From: an uncultured Candidatus Saccharibacteria bacterium
GTDB lineage: Bacteria; Patescibacteriota; Minisyncoccia; Phycocordibacterales; CAIRYW01
DNA: 64,000 nucleotides
Reading direction: 5' to 3'
Assembly (NCBI GenBank): GCA_964487135.1
Contig: CAZAOU010000002.1
Location: 934-64,933 of the forward strand
A model generated the notes under the pieces. The model was not told where the DNA came from and ran no database searches. It was given only the letters and a program-made list of their open reading frames with translations. The translations under genes were made by a program, and so were the position numbers. Shown here piece after piece: positions 30,373-63,817 of the stretch. Within the stretch, counting starts at the first letter, position 1. Every line of letters starts with the position of its first letter.

Positions 30373-30444
30373 GGCCCTATCGTCTAACGGTTAGGACATT
30401 GCCTTCTCAAGGCAGTAATCGGGGTTCGATTCCCCGTGGGGTCA
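30373..30444 (+). tRNA. tRNA-Glu (anticodon CTC)
   Basis: Manual fold gives a 7-bp acceptor ggcccta/tggggtc, D-arm gtct/ggac and anticodon stem ttgcc/ggcag. The loop ttCTCaa gives anticodon CTC. A 4-nt variable loop precedes the T-arm cgggg-ttcgatt-ccccg. CCA is not encoded. Confidence 0.75.
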
Positions 30445-30530
30445 CAAAAAGATACTCGTTCAATCTTTTTCACTAAGAAAGCTTCTACCGTCATATTGAC
30501 TTTTAATGAAAACATGTCAAATTTGTTGCT

Positions 30531-34289: not shown

Positions 34290-35993
34290 TTATCTGTCTG
34301 GTGGAATATTGTAATAATTGATTAAAAATTTAGACAATGAAAGAAACGGCTCCGCAAGAGTCTCTGCCGCAAACTGCACTCCTTTCGGGTAGACAGTATA
34401 CATTAGAACCAAAAATTGAGGGTTATAGGCCGGAAAATAGCCCACAAACGAGTGTAAAACCCTATCAGAGTAATATCCCCCTTCTGGACTTGCTATCTGC
34501 GCAGTGCCCGTTTTGGCTGCTACAGAATAATGAGGGTTTTTACCTTTTCCATTCAAAAGAGAGGTATCAACAACTTTTACAAGCATACGCGTTATTTCGT
34601 CTGCTGATTCTTTTTTGATAGCTTGTTTGCCTACATAACCTTCTAAGGGATCAAAAGAAATACCATCAGAATATTCTATTTTTTTTACAACATGAGGTTT
34701 TACCAAAACACCCCCATTTGCAAGAGCCGACATAGCCCTAACTGTTGAAACCGGAGTTAGAGCAATTCCCTGACCAAACGAAGCAGTTATATATTCAATG
34801 GTTCTTGGACTCTTTAAATTTCCAACGATATTTTGGGCTTCATTTGGCAAATCAATTCCAGTTTTTTCTCCAAGACCATAGCTCATCATATATTCACCAA
34901 ATTTTTTAGTTCCAAGTTTAGTAACAACATAAGAAACACCTGTATTTAAAGAATGATTCAAAACTTCCTGCATTGATATTTGTCCTCTACCTTTTTTGTC
35001 ATAATTGTAAATTGTTTCAGTATCCACAGAAAAACTTCCCTTATCAAAATATGTTGACGAAGGAGTTACAACACCCGCATCAATACCTGCAGCCATCGTA
35101 AGTGGTTTAATAATTGAACCCATCTCTTTTACCTCCTCAACTAGTGGGTTAGAAAAAACCAACGCTGATTTTTCTTTTGAAAAATTATTTGGGTCAAAAT
35201 TTGGAAAACTAGCCATTGCATAAATCTCGCCATTTTTTGGATTAATTATTATTCCCGATGTTTCCGCAGAAGACCATCCGGTATGAACTTTTTTTAGAGT
35301 CTCTTCCAAAGAAGTTTGCACTGTTGGTTCTATTGTTGAAAGCAAATCACCCTCTCGTTCTCCCCCATTAAGACCGGACTTTATATTCGAAAATATCTCA
35401 ACAAAAAAATTTGCATATAAATCCTTTTCTTTTCGAGAAAGTGTTTTGTCATAAAATTTTTCAAGTCCATATCTTCCAGCCAGTTCATCACCTTTATAAG
35501 CAACAATACCCAAAACATGAGAAGCATTTTCACCGCCCGGATAGACTCTCCAACGCTCTTTTACCAAACGAACTGAAGGAATTTTTAAGGCGGAAATTTT
35601 TAATGCAGTTTGTTCGTCAATTTTTTTTGCAATTTCTTCGTATGGATCGTTTTCTTTTTTTGCTTTTTCAATAAAAGAATCTTTATCAAGTGAAATAAAT
35701 TTACTTAGGGTTTCAAAAAGTTCTTCGGGATTACTAATTGCTTTTGGAATAATTGCTATAGTAAATCCCGTCTTTACACCGGCAGCAGAAATACGAGAAC
35801 CGTCTTTGTGTTCAAAATAAATGTTTCCTCTATTAAAAATTCCGCCTGATGATTTTGAATATTGTCTATCAGCCAAACCAACAAATTGATCATGCCTTAA
35901 AATCTGTAAAAAATATAATTTGGCAATAAAAACAAAGCCAACTGCCACTACGCATAAAGATAATATGCGTATTGATAAAGTTGACCTCTTCAT
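34290..35993 (-). CDS. ftsI: penicillin-binding protein (class B transpeptidase, FtsI-like)
   Basis: N-terminal TM, SxxK 'SIIKP', SxN 'SLNTG', KTG 'KTGTAQ'. Confidence 0.85.
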   Translation of the reverse strand: MKRSTLSIRILSLCVVAVGFVFIAKLYFLQILRHDQFVGLADRQYSKSSGGIFNRGNIYFEHKDGSRISAAGVKTGFTIAIIPKAISNPEELFETLSKFISLDKDSFIEKAKKENDPYEEIAKKIDEQTALKISALKIPSVRLVKERWRVYPGGENASHVLGIVAYKGDELAGRYGLEKFYDKTLSRKEKDLYANFFVEIFSNIKSGLNGGEREGDLLSTIEPTVQTSLEETLKKVHTGWSSAETSGIIINPKNGEIYAMASFPNFDPNNFSKEKSALVFSNPLVEEVKEMGSIIKPLTMAAGIDAGVVTPSSTYFDKGSFSVDTETIYNYDKKGRGQISMQEVLNHSLNTGVSYVVTKLGTKKFGEYMMSYGLGEKTGIDLPNEAQNIVGNLKSPRTIEYITASFGQGIALTPVSTVRAMSALANGGVLVKPHVVKKIEYSDGISFDPLEGYVGKQAIKKESADEITRMLVKVVDTSLLNGKGKNPHYSVAAKTGTAQIASPEGGYYSDRVLHSFVGYFPAYNPQFLVLMYTVYPKGVQFAAETLAEPFLSLSKFLINYYNIPPDR

Positions 35994-39870: not shown

Positions 39871-41568
39871 CTAGTTAGTATTGACTAACTCCTTTTTATC
39901 TGTTGTTATCCAATTTAACACAGACCCCATAACTCTCATAGCACTGACTTTATATGTTGGTGGTCCCTGCTCTAAAACAACGGCAAAGGTATATTTTGGA
40001 TTTTCGTATGGAAAAAATCCTTCAACCCAAGAATTTACATACTGTTTCCTTGCACCCACTTCTGCGGTTCCAGTTTTTGCAGCGACAGTAAGTCCTGGAA
40101 TGAGTAAAGCTCCGGCGGTTCCGTTAGTGACGGCCAATCTCATACCTTCATGAACAATATTATATTTAGCTTCATCAATTTTTGGTAATTCAGATATTTG
40201 TCCTTGTTCATCTTTTCTTATAACTGGTTCAACGATTTTACCTTTGTTCGCTATTCCTGTCATCGCTCTTGCTATCTGAAGTGGAGTAACCTGAAAACCG
40301 TATTGCCCAATTGAAGTATGATATGTATTTCCCAGAGTCCATTCCTCTCCATTAAAAGTTTCTTTTTTCCATTCTGGTGTTGGAATATTTCCTGAAGGAC
40401 CAGATAACGCCCCCGTAGTAGGAATTCCTAGTTTAAACAGTGTAAAATATTTATCTAATTTTGTAATTCCTAAACCTTTTTGATCTGCATACCCTCCACC
40501 GACTGCATAAAAATAAACATCAGATGACACAGCTAACGCCTCTCTCATATCTGTAAAGCCGTGAACTTTCCAGTCCTTAAAAATACTTTTTTTGGAAGGA
40601 TCGTAAGGATTTGGAATAGATATTGATCCCTTACTTTCTATTTTTTTATTTGGACTTATTATGTTTTCTTCTAATACACCAACTGAAATATATGGCTTTA
40701 CAATAGAGCCCGGGGCATAAAGACCCGATATTGCTCTATCAAGTGAGGGTTTTCTCTTGCTATTAAAATAAAAATTTATAAGAGAACTGTCTTTTCCCTC
40801 TGTTAGGACAGAAGATTTATATTCAGGATAAGAAGAAATTGCTAAAACCTCACCTGTTTTTGCATCCATAATGACACCTGCACCACCCTCAAATCCCGAT
40901 TCATCAACTGCATAAGATAAAAAATGATAAAGTCTTTCCTGTAAAGATGCATCAATAGACAACGAAAGTTTTTCTCCTGAAATTGGTTCTTCAAGAATAC
41001 TTTGAGACTCCACCTCTCCTGTCGCATTTACTTCTGTAAGCTTTACTCCATTAGTTCCTGAGAGAATTTCATCAAAATATTTTTCCAAACCATCCTGACC
41101 GTTTATTTTAGTCTCATAAAAAAATCCTGAAGAATCTTTTCTTGGATATTTCACGAAACCAAGCAAAGTTCCGAAGCCACTTTGTTCAATATATCGGCGC
41201 ACCGGAAAAACAGAATCGGCAGACAATTCATTCCAAGATAAAGGAATATCGTTTCTATCCGTTATTACTCCCCTATGAGCAAATACAATATCTTTTCGAA
41301 GGAGATTATTTTTACTTTTTTCGCTATAAAAATTTGCTTTAACTATTTGTAAATCTACCGCCCTGTAAATAAACATTAAAATAATTATCAAAAACAAAAT
41401 ACCCCCTATTAAAAAGGGTTTGGATCCTATCGGCTTTTCTATTCGACCCTCAAATTGATATTTATCATAAGATGGAATATTTGTGGCATCCAAAAATACT
41501 TCATCTGGATCGATAGATTTAATCTTGTGAGAGCGATTATAAAAAAAGTTTTTTATGAAAAAAAACAT
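39871..41568 (-). CDS. mrdA: penicillin-binding protein 2 (class B, elongation-type)
   Basis: SxxK 'SIVKP', SxD 'SSDVYF', KTG 'KTGTAEV'; follows mreBC(D). Confidence 0.8.
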   Translation of the reverse strand: MFFFIKNFFYNRSHKIKSIDPDEVFLDATNIPSYDKYQFEGRIEKPIGSKPFLIGGILFLIIILMFIYRAVDLQIVKANFYSEKSKNNLLRKDIVFAHRGVITDRNDIPLSWNELSADSVFPVRRYIEQSGFGTLLGFVKYPRKDSSGFFYETKINGQDGLEKYFDEILSGTNGVKLTEVNATGEVESQSILEEPISGEKLSLSIDASLQERLYHFLSYAVDESGFEGGAGVIMDAKTGEVLAISSYPEYKSSVLTEGKDSSLINFYFNSKRKPSLDRAISGLYAPGSIVKPYISVGVLEENIISPNKKIESKGSISIPNPYDPSKKSIFKDWKVHGFTDMREALAVSSDVYFYAVGGGYADQKGLGITKLDKYFTLFKLGIPTTGALSGPSGNIPTPEWKKETFNGEEWTLGNTYHTSIGQYGFQVTPLQIARAMTGIANKGKIVEPVIRKDEQGQISELPKIDEAKYNIVHEGMRLAVTNGTAGALLIPGLTVAAKTGTAEVGARKQYVNSWVEGFFPYENPKYTFAVVLEQGPPTYKVSAMRVMGSVLNWITTDKKELVNTN

Positions 41569-41810: not shown

Positions 41811-42571
41811 TTTATAATTGAGTGGGAAACGATAACATTCTCAATTTCAAAAGGATTGACCAAAGGCCTTACAATTAATCTTTTTAAAGTATCAGACTCT
41901 TTTTCTATAATCCTTTCAACCTTACCAGCAATACTTTTGTTATCTTGAAAAATTACCCCTTCGCCAACCGATACATTAACAGCAATAGGCACATAACTTT
42001 CATATACACCACCACCAATACCTTTAAGCTCTATAGGCACACGAGAAATTGATAGTCTGGCCTTTGATAATTTATCGTTAGTTGTTAACAATTCCACCTG
42101 AGAAAATTTATCGGAAACTTTTGATATAAAACCAATGGTAGTTGAAGAAAACAAAACATGATCACCGGATAAAACCCCATCAAGTGATCCTTTGTCTATA
42201 AAAAGAATATCGTAGGGTGTGTATCCGGGGTTACCTAAAATATAAGCATTCAAAAAACCTTTAGAATTTTCTGTGTCTGAATTATTTTCTTGGTTAATTA
42301 ACTTATACTCTGACAACATAGTTTGAAGTGATATCACTTCTTGTTTTAGTTTATTATTTTCTTCTTGAAGAAAATGTTTAGTAGTAAAAATATCTAAAAA
42401 TGGCATAGAAAAAAAAGACTGCCGAACAGAAAGTTTTAAAGAATTTATTGGATTATAAATAAAATAAAATATTGCTGATACAAAAATCGCAATGAGTACA
42501 ATAAAACCCGATTTCAAAAAAAATCTATTCTGACTTTCCTTTTTTTTTCTAGCGGACGAAAGGTAAATCAT
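41807..42571 (-). CDS. mreC: rod shape-determining protein MreC
   Basis: N-terminal TM, coiled coil, beta-rich C-domain; follows mreB. Confidence 0.7.
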   Translation of the reverse strand: MIYLSSARKKKESQNRFFLKSGFIVLIAIFVSAIFYFIYNPINSLKLSVRQSFFSMPFLDIFTTKHFLQEENNKLKQEVISLQTMLSEYKLINQENNSDTENSKGFLNAYILGNPGYTPYDILFIDKGSLDGVLSGDHVLFSSTTIGFISKVSDKFSQVELLTTNDKLSKARLSISRVPIELKGIGGGVYESYVPIAVNVSVGEGVIFQDNKSIAGKVERIIEKESDTLKRLIVRPLVNPFEIENVIVSHSIIK

Positions 42572-43610
42572 CTTCGTTATCTATAAGAGCATCCTTAAAT
42601 TCGTCTAGGCTTGATAAAATTATGCCAGCACCCCTAGCCACCGCGGTAAGAGGTTCATCTGAAATATAAACAGGAATTTTTAAACTCTCCTCTAATAATT
42701 CCTTAAGACCTCTAAGCAAAGCACCTCCACCTATTAAATGTATTCCTTTATACATAATATCGGAAACAACTTCAGGTGGTGTAATTTCTATAACCTCTTT
42801 TATGGACTCTATCAGTGTATCAATCGATAACCCGATTGCCTCTCTTACATCAGAATCTGTAATAACAACTTCTCTTGGTAATCCGGTAACCAAATCTCTA
42901 CCTCGCACAGGCATTTCCAGACTTTCTTGACCTGGAGTTACATTTCCGATGCCAATTTTTATTTCTTCTGCAGTTTTTTCACCAATTAAAATTTTAAATT
43001 CGTTCCTTAAATAAGAAACAATGTCGTTGGATAATCTATCGCCAGCAATTTTAATGTTTCTTGAATGAACAATTCCTCCAAGAGATATGACAGCAACATC
43101 AGTTGTTCCTCCTCCAATATCAACAATCATATTTCCAACCGGATCATGAATAGGCAAACCAATTCCAATTGCTCCAGCCATCGGCTCTTCAACAATAAAG
43201 ACATCGCGCGCTCCAGCATTTTTTGCAGCATCCCTTACCGCCCTTCTTTCAACGTTTGTAATTCCAGACGGTACCCCAACAACAACACGCGGACCAAGCC
43301 ATTTTTTTCTATTTTCTGTTGCCTTCTTTATCAAATAAGAAAGCATTTCTTCACAAACTTCAAAATCAGAAATTACCCCATCAACAATGGGCCTGACCGC
43401 AACAATATGCCCCGGAGTCCTTCCAAGCATATCTTTAGCTGATGCCCCAACAGCAACTACCTGACCAGTCTTTTGATTTACAGCAACAACAGAAGGTTCA
43501 TTTATTACAATACCTTCACCCTTAACCCAGACTAAAGTATTTGCGGTCCCGAGGTCAATACCAACATCTTCAGAAAATAATGAAAAAAATTTTTCTTTAA
43601 GAGTTGACAT
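42549..43610 (-). CDS. mreB: rod shape-determining protein MreB
   Basis: 'GIDLGTANTLVWVKGEGIVINEPSVVAV', actin-fold phosphate/adenosine motifs. Confidence 0.9.
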   Translation of the reverse strand: MSTLKEKFFSLFSEDVGIDLGTANTLVWVKGEGIVINEPSVVAVNQKTGQVVAVGASAKDMLGRTPGHIVAVRPIVDGVISDFEVCEEMLSYLIKKATENRKKWLGPRVVVGVPSGITNVERRAVRDAAKNAGARDVFIVEEPMAGAIGIGLPIHDPVGNMIVDIGGGTTDVAVISLGGIVHSRNIKIAGDRLSNDIVSYLRNEFKILIGEKTAEEIKIGIGNVTPGQESLEMPVRGRDLVTGLPREVVITDSDVREAIGLSIDTLIESIKEVIEITPPEVVSDIMYKGIHLIGGGALLRGLKELLEESLKIPVYISDEPLTAVARGAGIILSSLDEFKDALIDNEDDLPFVR

Positions 43611-47327: not shown

Positions 47328-48341
47328 CTACCTTTTCGCGATAATAGTCTTCTTGTATGTATCAAGATGCTCAAGAGCAACGCCTGTTCCCAAAACAACA
47401 CAATATAATGGCTTTTCTGCCAAACTCGCCTTAACCCCTGTTCGTCTAAGAACTAACTCTGGAAGATTTCGAAGCTGTGATGAGCCCCCTGTCATAATAA
47501 TCCCCTGATCAATAATGTCAGATGCAAGCTCGGGAGGAGTCTCTTGTAATACATCTTTTATTGCTTGAATCATTTCACGAAGTTCTTTTCCAAGAGCTCT
47601 AACAACCTCATTTGTTTTTATCTCAATAGAACGAGGAAGCCCAGAAATACAATCTCTTCCTTTTACCATCATGGACAATTCCTCTTCAACAGGCACGGCC
47701 GAACCAACAGCTATTTTTATTTCTTCAGCAGTCTTATCGCCAATCAAAAGATTGTGAGCTTTTTTCATATAATCAACAACTGCTGAATCCAACTTATTAC
47801 CCGCGCACTTAACAGAAGTTGATGAAACTATACCTCCCAAAGATATAACTGCCACATCCGTTGTTCCTCCTCCTATATCAACAACCATATGTCCTCTTGG
47901 CTCATATATAGAAATCCCAGCACCAATTGCTGCAAGAATTGGTTCTTTTACAACAAACGCATTTTTAGCTCCGGCCTTTATTGCCGCCTCAATAACAGCC
48001 CTTCTCTCTGTTGAAGTGACTCCTGCCGGCACAGATATCATTACTTCTGGTTTTAAAAGACTCCACTTACCAAGAGCTTTTGTCATGTAGTATCTAAGCA
48101 TTGCCTCAGTTACTCTGTAATCCGCAATCACACCGTCTTTTAGAGGTCTGTAAGCAACAATAGTATCTGGTGTTTTTCCTATCATATCTTTGGCCTCCAA
48201 ACCAACCGCCAATATTTTGTTACCCTCTTTTGAAACCGCAACAACAGATGGTTCGTTTAGGACGATTCCCTTTCCTGGAGCAAAAACAAGCGTATTAGCT
48301 GTGCCTAAATCTATACCTAGTTTATTGCTAAATAACGCCAT
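47328..48341 (-). CDS. MreB/Mbl-family actin homolog (second paralog)
   Basis: 'LGIDLGTANTLVFAPGKGIVLNEPSVVAV'; 337 aa; ~55% identical in its N-terminus to the mreB at 42549. Confidence 0.8.
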   Translation of the reverse strand: MALFSNKLGIDLGTANTLVFAPGKGIVLNEPSVVAVSKEGNKILAVGLEAKDMIGKTPDTIVAYRPLKDGVIADYRVTEAMLRYYMTKALGKWSLLKPEVMISVPAGVTSTERRAVIEAAIKAGAKNAFVVKEPILAAIGAGISIYEPRGHMVVDIGGGTTDVAVISLGGIVSSTSVKCAGNKLDSAVVDYMKKAHNLLIGDKTAEEIKIAVGSAVPVEEELSMMVKGRDCISGLPRSIEIKTNEVVRALGKELREMIQAIKDVLQETPPELASDIIDQGIIMTGGSSQLRNLPELVLRRTGVKASLAEKPLYCVVLGTGVALEHLDTYKKTIIAKR

Positions 48342-58656: not shown

Positions 58657-58676
58657 ATTAAATTATTTTGCCTTCC

Positions 58677-58829
58677 CAAGAATGCAGTACATTCCTGTTC
58701 CGCAATCAGGACACTTTCCTTTCATTGCTTTTCTTCCGTTCTTCATTTCAACCTCCTTCGCCTCAGCCATTTCCTTTTTTGCTTTGCACTTAACGCAATA
58801 TGCTGTTGTTGCCATATGTTTTAGTTAAC
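58677..58829 (-). CDS. small zinc-ribbon protein (50 aa; CxxC...CPxCG)
   Basis: Reverse-strand ORF 'MATTAYCVKCKAKKEMAEAKEVEMKNGRKAMKGKCPDCGTGMYCILGKAK'; missed by the ORF track (<60 aa). Confidence 0.5.
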
Positions 58830-61696: not shown

Positions 61697-63370
61697 TTAT
61701 TGTCCCCAATAACACGCACCACCCTGAGCATTACATGAACTTATCGTACTGAAAGACGAACAATTTATACTTGAAGGACCGCACGAACCGGATTGAGGAA
61801 TATAAGTATAGCTACAACCATATCCACTACTGCTGTACTGTTGACAAGTAGATGAATCTAAACCTGAACAACTTCCGGAAGCATAAACGGGGTGTTCTCC
61901 ATTACAAGCATTTGAAGCACTATCAAACGAACAACCTTGTAAGCTATTACAATAATCCACCTTCTGCTGATAATCTTCATCCTCTGGATTACCGCCGTAA
62001 TAGATATTGCAACTTTGATTGCCTGTATAATAACTATAATCACCTGTGCAAGAATAACCCTCCGCCGTGCCGTTCCAAATACACAGGCCACCAGTTGCAT
62101 TACAATTAGAACTTGAATTTATATACTGGCAACTTGCACTATCATAATTGTGACAACTTCCTCCTCCCGGCTCACAAATATCTCCCACACCATTATTATC
62201 GTAGTCATCCTGCCCTGGATTATAATTTGTCGGACAATTGTCTAAACTATAAGCAATTCCATCGTAGTCAGGATCATAACAAGCATCCCCAGCTCCTCCA
62301 GCTGAACCTTGCGCTGACTGACTAGGGTTATAAACATTTGGACAATTATCACTTGAATTAGGAATTCCATCGGCATCAGAGTCAGCATCAGGATCACACA
62401 CATCTCCTATACCATCATTGTCAGAATCAGCCTGGTTTGCGTTAGAAGTGCTTGGACAATTATCTTGAGAATTAACAATTCCATCACTATCACTATCTAT
62501 ATTATCTTGATCACACACATTTCCTATTCCATCATTGTCAGAATCAGCTTGATTAGCGTTAGAAACTGATGGACAGTTGTCTGTTTCATTAGGTATTCCA
62601 TCGCCATCTGAATCGGCGGCTGTCTCACACACATCTCCTATTCCATCATTATCAGAATCAGCTTGGTTTGCATTAGAAACTGACGGACAGTTGTCTGTTG
62701 AATCTGGCACGCCATCACCATCTGTATCTACTGGATTATTACATGTGTCTGTGGAATCTGTCGGACAAGAATCGCAAGAGTCTCCTCTACCATCATTATC
62801 TGTGTCTGTTTGAAGAGCATTTGAAACAGATGGGCAATTATCTGCATTATCTTTTACTCCATCATCATCTAGATCGTCATCCGTTGTGGTTTGAGTGGTT
62901 GTAGCAAAATATGTTGAATATCTAATTGATACAGTATTTTCAGGACATAAATTTAAACTACCACTTTGAATATACTGACTTGAAGAACAAGAGTTATAAA
63001 CAATTCCCTGCTGTTCACCATTTTCGTCGGTAATAATAGGAAATTCCAAAGACTGTTCCCCAAATGGAGCAAAACTCGAATTTATACGCGTTGTAACAAC
63101 CTGACCATTTACCATACAATCATCGGCAGTAATACAACAATATGAAGAACCCTCATCACAACTTGGATATCCTCCATTGTCTTGATTATATTCTTCAAGA
63201 GCCAATTGAACTTGGTGAGCTTGAACAACTGTTTTTGCGTCATTTGCTTTCTTCTTACTCGTTGCAACAGAAGCTGATACCACACTTGAAAGAAGTGAAA
63301 TTATAGAAATTACCATCATTAACTCTATGAGGGTAAAACCTTTTTTAAAAAACTCTTTTTTAAAATACAT
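61697..63370 (-). CDS. large type IV pilin-like protein with thrombospondin type-3 Ca-binding repeats and a Cys-rich C-terminal domain (putative pilus adhesin)
   Basis: N-terminal 'KKGFTLIELMMVISIISLLSSVV' prepilin motif. About six repeats of 'D-DGxGDxCD…DxDGDGxPDxxDNCPxVSNANQADSDNDGIGDVCD'. C-terminus has >25 Cys. Confidence 0.7.
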   Translation of the reverse strand: MYFKKEFFKKGFTLIELMMVISIISLLSSVVSASVATSKKKANDAKTVVQAHQVQLALEEYNQDNGGYPSCDEGSSYCCITADDCMVNGQVVTTRINSSFAPFGEQSLEFPIITDENGEQQGIVYNSCSSSQYIQSGSLNLCPENTVSIRYSTYFATTTQTTTDDDLDDDGVKDNADNCPSVSNALQTDTDNDGRGDSCDSCPTDSTDTCNNPVDTDGDGVPDSTDNCPSVSNANQADSDNDGIGDVCETAADSDGDGIPNETDNCPSVSNANQADSDNDGIGNVCDQDNIDSDSDGIVNSQDNCPSTSNANQADSDNDGIGDVCDPDADSDADGIPNSSDNCPNVYNPSQSAQGSAGGAGDACYDPDYDGIAYSLDNCPTNYNPGQDDYDNNGVGDICEPGGGSCHNYDSASCQYINSSSNCNATGGLCIWNGTAEGYSCTGDYSYYTGNQSCNIYYGGNPEDEDYQQKVDYCNSLQGCSFDSASNACNGEHPVYASGSCSGLDSSTCQQYSSSGYGCSYTYIPQSGSCGPSSINCSSFSTISSCNAQGGACYWGQ

Positions 63371-63391
63371 AATTATTTAAATTATAAAAAA

Positions 63392-63817
63392 TTAATTTAA
63401 AATTTTTGAAACAAGAAAAGATACGAATCCACATAAAACACCTCCCCAAAGCATATCAACGATAGCCACCTTAACTGGCCACAAACTTAAAGTACTCATA
63501 TTGGTCATGTCGTATATTCCATAAGAAATAATACCGAAAATTGCACCGAATACTAATGCTTGAATAGGACTACCTCCCGAACGAGGTATCACAAATAATA
63601 TAATTCCTAGCACCAAAAAAACATAAGCAATAAGACCTGGTAGTATAAGAGGGTTCATGGTGCCATTAGCACCAATTCTAAGTAAAGGTCTTAAGTTTGA
63701 TATATAAAAATTAGAAGCCAATACTTGTAGCCACACATAATCAATTGCCAATATAGCAATCATACTAACTAAGAATTGTTTTATAAAATAAATCATAGTA
63801 TATGTGCCATGTACCAA
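63392..63817 (-). CDS. hypothetical membrane protein (DUF2177-like)
   Basis: 141 aa, 4 TM helices. Confidence 0.4.
   Translation of the reverse strand: MVHGTYTMIYFIKQFLVSMIAILAIDYVWLQVLASNFYISNLRPLLRIGANGTMNPLILPGLIAYVFLVLGIILFVIPRSGGSPIQALVFGAIFGIISYGIYDMTNMSTLSLWPVKVAIVDMLWGGVLCGFVSFLVSKILN

Follow-up and report, generated by a model that had tools for sequence, protein, structure and literature searches.

Little is known of the means by which ultrasmall episymbionts locate their hosts and stay attached to them; the leading candidates with experimental support are type IV pili. These pili have been described as well conserved in Patescibacteria, and Nanosynbacter lyticus binds its host efficiently only with PilX2, which filament extrusion does not require (PMC11623550). 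In modular pilins, an N-terminal pilin motif is combined with a non-pilus-specific domain, attached through a linker where the complete pilin module ends; the published catalogue lists over 1,200 of these proteins in 264 architectures, some of them from the Candidate Phyla Radiation (Raynaud et al., 2021; PMC8179133). Bulky modules would clash within the pilus shaft, although a flexible linker leaves display along the shaft possible (PMC8179133). The metal-dependent module of PilB from Streptococcus sanguinis serves adhesion (PMC8179133; PMC9934059). Here, a pilin gene is described on a 64,000-nucleotide stretch (the window) of contig CAZAOU010000002.1 from an uncultured Candidatus Saccharibacteria bacterium (assembly GCA_964487135.1). 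Its product is read as a modular type IV pilin of a Patescibacteria-type bacterium, acting by the mechanism set out below, a reading to which we assign a probability of roughly 60%. Most likely the pilus displays it as an adhesin, and it belongs to a known kind, the modular pilins, rather than to a new type of system.

The gene is a single open reading frame (ORF) of 557 amino acids (aa), which the ORF listing places on the minus strand at exactly 61697..63370, the position given for it in a first-pass annotation of the window. The identical protein (P0001) occurs once in the public protein collection, on an NCBI contig of 73,298 bp. Its three parts are a type IV pilin module, six double thrombospondin type 3 (TSP3) units and a 155-aa Cys-rich tail, and the order of pilin module (aa 1-155), linker, seven TSP_3 stretches and tail is that of a modular pilin. 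The 36 Cys residues are divided among the head (6), the TSP3 block (14) and the tail (16), and the even count in each module would fit a predicted extracellular site and full disulfide bonding. On sequence grounds these features are not due to chance, since the ORF is 1.67 kb long in a window of 34.7% GC, the Pfam scores lie far above their cutoffs, and a homologue (P0061, 485 aa) shares the three-part architecture, with 52% identity over 370 residues and fewer canonical TSP3 units. Codon usage in all three parts of the gene is host-like (GC content at third codon positions, GC3, of 0.19-0.26 vs. 0.19-0.28 in host genes). The GC3 of the TSP3 block is the same as in host genes and so gives no indication of horizontal transfer.

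Type IV pilins are recognised by a short basic leader ending in Gly, Phe or Met at +1, Glu at +5 and a hydrophobic stretch of about 20 residues. In the present protein, a short basic leader with Gly at -1 is followed by FTLIELMMVISIISLLSSVV, with Phe at +1, Glu at +5 and a hydrophobic stretch, so that the prepilin motif reads KKG/FTLIELMMV (slash, predicted cleavage site) and the mature N-terminus FTLIE. Pfam N_methyl (PF07963) covers aa 9-31 with 27.4 bits against a cutoff of 21.2, and TIGR02532 scores 31.3 bits against 16.3; the class III (type IV pilin) N-terminus proposed in the first-pass annotation is borne out. In an AlphaFold2 (AF2) model of the full-length protein, built from a 34-sequence alignment, a helix spans aa 14-65 with a predicted local distance difference test (pLDDT) score of 80-88, and the strands of the head extend across aa 77-151 (pLDDT about 50-88, lowest at aa 130-146). 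Over most of the pilin module pLDDT is 70-88, with values of about 50 at aa 130-160; in the linker region it is about 49 for aa 141-160 and below 50 for aa 157-161. A phmmer search of PDB sequences matched the module to GspG 5wda (aa 12-76; 7e-6) and PilA 6xxd (aa 12-98; 4.5e-5), with a PilE structure also among the matches. A long alpha-1 helix with a small antiparallel beta head, the “lollipop” fold of pilins, is present at model level, without confident structural superposition. Residues 1-155 align end to end with pilins of 150-200 aa, and as modelled they form a complete type IV pilin module. Two narrower assignments were rejected. Membership of the GspG major pseudopilins is opposed by subthreshold scores (TIGR01710, 46.5 vs. 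88.85 bits and aa 10-74 only; PF08334, 14.8 vs. 21), and a competence (DNA-receptor) pilin is unlikely because the mature protein holds 85 acidic and 9 basic residues.

Searches with the first 163 residues alone likewise matched mostly pilins of 150-200 aa, and those that carry an organism name are labelled as Yonathbacteria, Sungbacteria, Taylorbacteria, Parcubacteria, Patescibacteria and Paceibacterota. An exhaustive HMMER search with aa 1-170 recovered 20,557 proteins at E<=1e-3 and 410 at E<=1e-10; at E<=1e-30 only two remained, the protein itself and P0061. Family statistics were taken from the best 150 cluster representatives of these head relatives. Their median length is 191 aa and most are short, although 32 of the 150 have a mature length of at least 250 aa and carry long, very different tails. 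The label of a “giant” protein, given in the first-pass annotation, holds only in a relative sense: the product is about three times as long as the family median, but relatives reach 688 aa. In the family alignment of the head, G-1, F1, I4, E5 and P69 are invariant, while T2, L3, G67, Y68, C79, C85, Y125 and C142 are nearly so, and the GGYP motif is conserved.

The TSP3 block is the most readily identified part of the appendage. Pfam TSP_3 (PF02412) scores 172 bits against a cutoff of 25 (E 1.7e-51) in seven stretches, which resolve by inspection into six double units of 36-49 aa each, in keeping with an earlier estimate of about six repeats. Each double unit follows the pattern DxDxDGxxDxxDNC...DxDxDGxGDxCD, with two Cys residues 20-21 residues apart, and the Cys-paired acidic loops are of the Ca2+ type, with predicted binding. 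At least ten DxDxDG loops are intact: among the N-type loops five are intact and one is partial, and among the C-type loops five are intact and one, the fifth in order, is degenerate. The 14 Cys residues of the block form six pairs with the 20-21-residue spacing plus C202/C210, and 54 of its 237 residues are Asp. In phmmer searches of the PDB, the block matched COMP (3fby; 1.7e-42), TSP-2 (1.5e-40), TSP-1 (2.4e-21) and a bacterial OmpA-family TSP3 protein (5wtl; 2.6e-8); Foldseek likewise returned COMP 3fby (E 5e-13), TSP-2 and TSP-1. AF2 gives the block a pLDDT of mostly 72-88, falling to about 50 at aa 201-210 and 351-360, with hardly any secondary structure, a predicted shape that agrees, as expected, with the thrombospondin “wire”. 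Neither of the two outcomes that the first-pass annotation named as refuting it, a general Sec signal in place of the prepilin motif or repeats that a profile search does not recognise as TSP3, was obtained. Membership of the thrombospondins/COMP was rejected, the matches to 3fby, 1yo8 and 1ux6 being confined to the repeats (aa 214-348). The myxobacterial protein MtsC (NF047638) was also rejected as a family: the score is 177.7 vs. 350 bits, it covers the repeat region only (aa 292-401), and the C-terminus has no hydrophobic sorting segment.

Beyond the repeats lies a tail of four 4-Cys units (C406-414-423-430, C441-454-474-480, C489-501-509-519 and C530-537-546-553), ending in ...GACYWGQ. With 16 Cys in 155 aa the region is Cys-rich, as the first-pass annotation had it, but its count of more than 25 Cys was too high. 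The tail has no Pfam or NCBIfam match and no fold match among solved structures, and a word-index protein search with it as query returned nothing. Other pilins of the family nevertheless share part of it. In an alignment with ten family tails, the last two units keep invariant Cys residues and a near-invariant Trp two residues past the last Cys. A unit hidden Markov model of the 4-Cys repeat gave negative scores after composition correction, and an end-anchored pattern (C-x4-9-C-x5-9-C-x4-8-C-x-[WYF]-x0-7-end) with shuffled controls was used instead. The pattern occurs in 11 of the 150 head-family representatives, against 0.1-0.4% in composition-preserving shuffles of the termini, and in none of 118 non-pilin TSP3 proteins. 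BLAST comparisons between tails of family members are significant (e.g., P0061 vs. P0253, E 2e-8). The tail is thus a probable new small domain, a conserved and previously undescribed module.

The appendages of the family differ widely. TSP_3 lies above the Pfam gathering score in six of the 150 representatives (the present protein, P0061, P0276, P0279, P0350 and P0337), other tails hold an InlB B-repeat or an FGE-sulfatase-like domain, and the majority have no Pfam match. The TSP3 block stands between head and Cys-rich tail in the present protein, P0061 and P0276, while in P0279, P0295 and P0350 the TSP3-type motifs reach the C-terminus or come close to it, with no Cys-rich module beyond them. 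Many relatives without TSP3 retain the terminal 4-Cys unit. Three long-tailed pilins from other lineages (P0276, P0275 and P0280) share one gene order, consisting of Bac_transf, a GT4 glycosyltransferase, a single-pass membrane protein of about 100 aa, the pilin and a convergent FtsW gene. Their tails are nonetheless very different, which fits a conserved carrier with a diversifying appendage. The membrane protein in these neighbourhoods is itself conserved, ends in ...LPxxIQxKII.., abuts or overlaps the pilin start and is without family assignment. A second recurrent tail repeat of about 30 aa (GCTDxxAxNYNxxAxxDDGSCxY) was observed in tandem in several family tails (P0253, P0269, P0272, P0276 and P0293); it has no Pfam match and is absent from the present protein. 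On the contig of another relative, P0241, a sortase gene adjoins one for a 996-aa SpaA-like protein with a dockerin match (L164, 34-3754), a pair that looks like a sortase-type surface fibre in an apparently Patescibacteria-type genome.

According to the favoured mechanism, a prepilin peptidase would cut after Gly11 and methylate Phe12, and until its transfer to a pilus the protein would be held in the membrane by the hydrophobic alpha-1 helix. Pilus machinery encoded elsewhere in the genome would then add small amounts of it to a type IV pilus; the protein is probably a minor pilin. It would most likely sit at the tip, since an appendage of 390 residues would be difficult to fit into the shaft. 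Crystal structures of COMP and other thrombospondins (1UX6, 1YO8, 3FBY) hold about two Ca2+ per type 3 loop, and by analogy the TSP3 block may bind ions in the same proportion. It would serve as a highly acidic spacer, stiffened by disulfides and Ca2+, that keeps the tail off the filament. The tail, rich in aromatic residues, Ser and Gly and predicted to be knotted by disulfides, could then act as a ligand-binding module, whose probable target is a glycan or a polymer at the surface of a host cell or substrate. Throughout the family, a conserved pilin carrier would be combined with tails that are exchanged or diversified. A more far-reaching version, which we put forward only tentatively, makes the tail an undescribed disulfide-rich domain, built of 4-Cys units that end in C-x-W and always stand at the extreme C-terminus, that determines the host or substrate of Paceibacteria-type pilins. 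The carrier would keep a stable place in the genome, while stalks (TSP3 and other repeats) and tails would be shuffled and diversify quickly, in the manner of phage receptor-binding proteins; how far the probe extends and how stiff it is would depend on the Ca2+-loaded TSP3 stalk.

Several points weigh against the modular-pilin reading. In Foldseek the head resembles solved pilins only weakly (CofA filament 9iuf, E 0.07; gonococcal pilin 1ay2, E 0.43). The tail has low confidence in the full-length AF2 model, and the tail model has only moderate confidence (pLDDT 69), without a match to a known binding fold. The gene is an orphan outside any pilus locus, pilus assembly genes (PilB/C/M/T/D) are absent from the approximately 50 scanned ORFs of the window, and a type IV pilus in the source organism is assumed from knowledge of the phylum. 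Everything said here on Ca2+ binding, disulfides, processing, localisation and the ligand is prediction from sequence, and a ligand-binding role of the tail is conjectural. The first-pass proposal of an adhesin displayed on a type IV pilus survives in its logic, which is that of modular pilins and has a precedent in PilX2; for the tip itself, where we infer the position, the head gives no specific pointer, being of the major-pilin/GspG type with Glu5 (TIGR01710, 46.5 bits). Together with the low-confidence linker, this head would permit display along the shaft or an anchored form that does not polymerise. The anchored form, in which the pilin-like N-terminus is merely a prepilin-peptidase-dependent signal and membrane anchor and the stalk and tail are a short-range adhesin on a monoderm-like cell, would account for the lack of a pilus locus and of machinery among the scanned ORFs. 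It also agrees with relatives that are orphans amid cell-envelope genes (glycosyltransferases, FtsW), and an ectodomain of about 390 residues on one hydrophobic helix would be workable. We consider it rather unlikely, because the head forms an entire pilin module that hundreds of short pilins share down to its packing residues (F1, E5 and the GGYP/Cys pattern), a degree of conservation that a mere anchor would not need, and because known modular pilins enter pili (PMC8179133). A major, abundant shaft pilin whose filament is coated with flexible Ca2+-binding appendages is less probable by far. The type of head and Glu5 would suit it, and a flexible linker could free the appendage from a packed shaft, as Raynaud et al. 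left open (PMC8179133), but a separate 132-aa pilin is encoded in the window, family members are mostly short around their 191-aa median, and the Patescibacteria studied so far have small major pilins and large minor ones (PMC11623550).

The remaining alternatives concern the repeats. The first-pass annotation took the TSP3 block itself for the adhesive element, which would make it a Ca2+-dependent adhesive or cohesive module, as annotated for Myxococcus MtsC, with the tail as a structural cap. MtsC, a “cell-cell cohesion” TSP3 protein, is indeed the strongest NCBIfam match (177.7 bits), a few genomes fuse TSP3 to the pilus adhesin PilY1, and three relatives (P0279, P0295 and P0350) have TSP3-type motifs near the C-terminus with no Cys-rich module after them. 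That score, however, is half of the cutoff of 350, a MYXO-CTERM is lacking, and most family tails are without TSP3 yet keep the 4-Cys end module, the element that the family conserves. The adhesive part is more likely the tail, because bacterial TSP3, in the TraB model, has been described as a Ca2+-binding linker between domains, the repeats are in the middle, in the position of a spacer, in the present protein, P0061 and P0276, and the 4-Cys unit is kept without them; adhesion by the repeats themselves is unlikely. At the DNA level, the block is a tandem array with a period of 114-117 bp. Tandem Repeats Finder (TRF) reports a period of 114 with 3.2 copies at 62338-62703 and 75% matches (85% in the best sub-array). 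The array is real, but the units are not near-identical, as had been claimed: in register they are 63-84% identical to the reference copy, the best pair in a unit-by-unit comparison (U2/U3) has 83% nucleotide identity, and the longest exact direct repeat is 20 nt. About one-third of the identical amino acids between units use different codons. The units appear from this to be old duplications maintained at the protein level, and the copy-number variation by slippage or recombination that was suggested for them is unsupported because they are old and diverged. A phase- or length-variable adhesin that gains and loses units within populations by slipped-strand mispairing or recombination is therefore highly improbable, despite the tandem layout. 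P0061, with three canonical TSP_3 stretches to the seven here, indicates that the number shifts over evolutionary time; the divergence among units (63-85% identity) is that of old duplications under protein-level selection and not of an actively slipping array. The collections searched held no strain-level relative for comparing repeat number, a scan of genome contigs with the head as query gave no match, and scans of genome and metagenome contigs with the generic GFTLIEL pattern gave, among the matches listed, distant pilins without TSP3 or Cys tails.

Table 1. Positions of the pilin gene, its parts and other features of the window, with the neighbourhoods of three related pilins on other contigs.
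Feature	Position	Strand	Basis or remark
Pilin coding sequence, complete	61697..63370	-	ORF listing; stop codon 61697-61699
Class III (prepilin) leader, aa 1-11, MYFKKEFFKKG, Gly-1 last	63338..63370	-	Direct reading; N_methyl, TIGR02532
Alpha-1 helix of pilin module, aa 12-65 (F1, E5, hydrophobic N-terminal half)	63176..63337	-	AF2, phmmer
Globular beta head, aa 66-155, 6 Cys	62906..63175	-	AF2, family alignment, homologue search
Thr/Asp-rich linker, aa 156-165 (...ATTTQTTTDD...), predicted flexible	62876..62905	-	AF2 pLDDT, composition
Six double TSP3 units, aa 166-402	62165..62875	-	Pfam TSP_3, phmmer, Foldseek, AF2, TRF
Cys-rich tail, aa 403-557, rich in S/G/Y/N	61700..62164	-	Four 4-Cys units, each ending C-x-[W/F/Y]
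Last two 4-Cys units, aa 489-557, the conserved part of family tails	61700..61906	-	Motif test, alignment
Promoter-like site, TTCAAA-18-TATAAT	63381..63410	-	Consensus scan, 10/12 matches; weak evidence in AT-rich DNA
Second prepilin gene, 132 aa	29838..30236	-	Motif scan; Pfam N_methyl 39.9 bits
Two MreB paralogues	42549-43610, 47328-48341	-	
Two PBP2-type transpeptidases	34290-35993, 39871-41568	-	
50-aa ORF with two CxxC pairs (MATTAYCVKCKAKKEM...KCPDCGTGMYCILGKAK)	58663-58815	-	Resembles a small zinc-ribbon protein
Neighbourhoods of long-tailed pilins P0276, P0275, P0280	L081 2521-4153, L165 1-2308, L166 9708-11485		Three other lineages

The pilin gene is flanked, on the same minus strand, by genes for a DUF2177 membrane protein, 21 bp away, and for an MFS transporter, 13 bp away. 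The promoter-like site lies just upstream of the start codon and overlaps the end of the upstream DUF2177 gene; co-transcription with the flanking genes is equally possible because the same-strand gaps are only 21 bp and 13 bp. No terminator-like site was found downstream of the gene. A link of the pilin to the DUF2177 and MFS genes was rejected, as only the short gaps speak for it and the relatives sit in other neighbourhoods. The second prepilin gene of the window has a canonical motif (KRG/FTLIELLVV), adjoins tRNA-Glu (30373-30445), and is also outside a pilus locus and unlinked to the longer one. Its product is 41% identical to the long pilin over the N-terminal 82 residues only, and it may be the major (or another) pilin of the organism.

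The other scanned ORFs of the window are housekeeping genes (mur/PBP/FtsW, two MreB, MreC, aminoacyl-tRNA synthetases, DnaB, PriA, RecR and ribosomal proteins), and a PADLOC scan returned no defence-system match. The duplicated cell-shape and cell-wall genes (MreB, PBP2-type) are found here together with MreC and a full mur/FtsW block in a seemingly small genome. The 50-aa zinc-ribbon-like ORF sits in a gene-poor stretch with overlapping spurious ORFs. All window proteins with an exact look-up match (DnaB, MreB, CysS, a GltX-type synthetase, the small pilin and the long pilin) are singleton clusters at 90% identity that come from one NCBI contig, and no exact sequence of the DUF2177 and MFS neighbours was found in the protein collection; the lineage appears to have been sampled a single time.

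Beyond the few cultivated Saccharibacteria, Paceibacteria-type pilins bear long interchangeable appendages. The one described here, a stalk of Ca2+-type repeats with a conserved Cys-rich end module, is a concrete candidate that can be expressed for binding studies, and the combined signature of pilin head and terminal 4-Cys unit could be used to mine metagenomes for host-recognition determinants. If the tail is indeed a recognition module, tail sequences could predict the host range of uncultivated episymbionts and help to test it.

Among known systems, PilB (vWA) and PilC (lectin) of Streptococcus sanguinis have the same layout of a pilin module (IPR012902), a linker and a non-pilus domain (PMC8179133; PMC9934059). 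The present protein differs from them in having a TSP3 array and an uncharacterised 4-Cys repeat in place of vWA or lectin, in being encoded outside a pilus locus, and in being known from its sequence alone. The TSP3 entry (IPR003367) does not appear in the catalogue of 264 pilin architectures (Dataset S1, PMC8179133). It does occur with another carrier that targets its module to type IV pili, as the PilY1 catalogue lists 3+1+1 fusions (Dataset S2, PMC8179133) in which PilY1/PilC has TSP3 at the N-terminus. The PilY1 carrier is a beta-propeller (IPR008707), whereas the carrier here is a pilin, and membership of the PilY1/PilC tip adhesins was rejected, with no IPR008707/PF05567 match at E<=1 (Pfam) and no propeller in the models. 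According to the summary in PMC8179133, the type IVb minor pilins CofB and TcpB resemble the protein in having a pilin module, a flexible linker and C-terminal domains that are invisible to sequence signatures; the latter are beta-rich, and both proteins are tip-located initiators or adapters. They differ in belonging to type IVb, in being encoded in pilus operons, in forming trimers, and in tails without detected sequence or fold similarity.

Thrombospondins and COMP (3fby, 1yo8, 1ux6) share the alternating DxDxDGxxDxxDNC and DxDxDGxGDxCD loops and the paired Cys residues, with 35-42% identity over 130-300 residues. The present protein is bacterial, however, has a pilin N-terminus, no EGF repeats before TSP3, no L-lectin-like C-terminal domain and an unrelated tail. 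TSP3 has been described as a linker between two functional domains in the OmpA-family protein 5wtl (Dai et al., 2017, cited in PMC12045341) and in Myxococcus TraB, where the repeats are short and bind Ca2+ in a disulfide-dependent manner. Both proteins occur in diderms, in the periplasm or outer membrane, and have few repeats, unlike the 12 loops in a predicted extracellular pilin appendage. A precedent within the superphylum is PilX1/PilX2 of Nanosynbacter lyticus TM7x (Saccharibacteria), which are also large pilins with accessory C-terminal domains and are proposed to be tip adhesins (PMC11623550). Their domains are a jelly-roll-like domain and a seven-bladed beta-propeller, their genes are in pilus loci, and they have no canonical PilD signal (PMC11623550), whereas the protein described here has a canonical G/FTLIE signal and is encoded by an orphan gene. 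Set beside these systems, what is new here is not a kind of machine, but one architecture and one likely new small domain within the known class of modular pilins.

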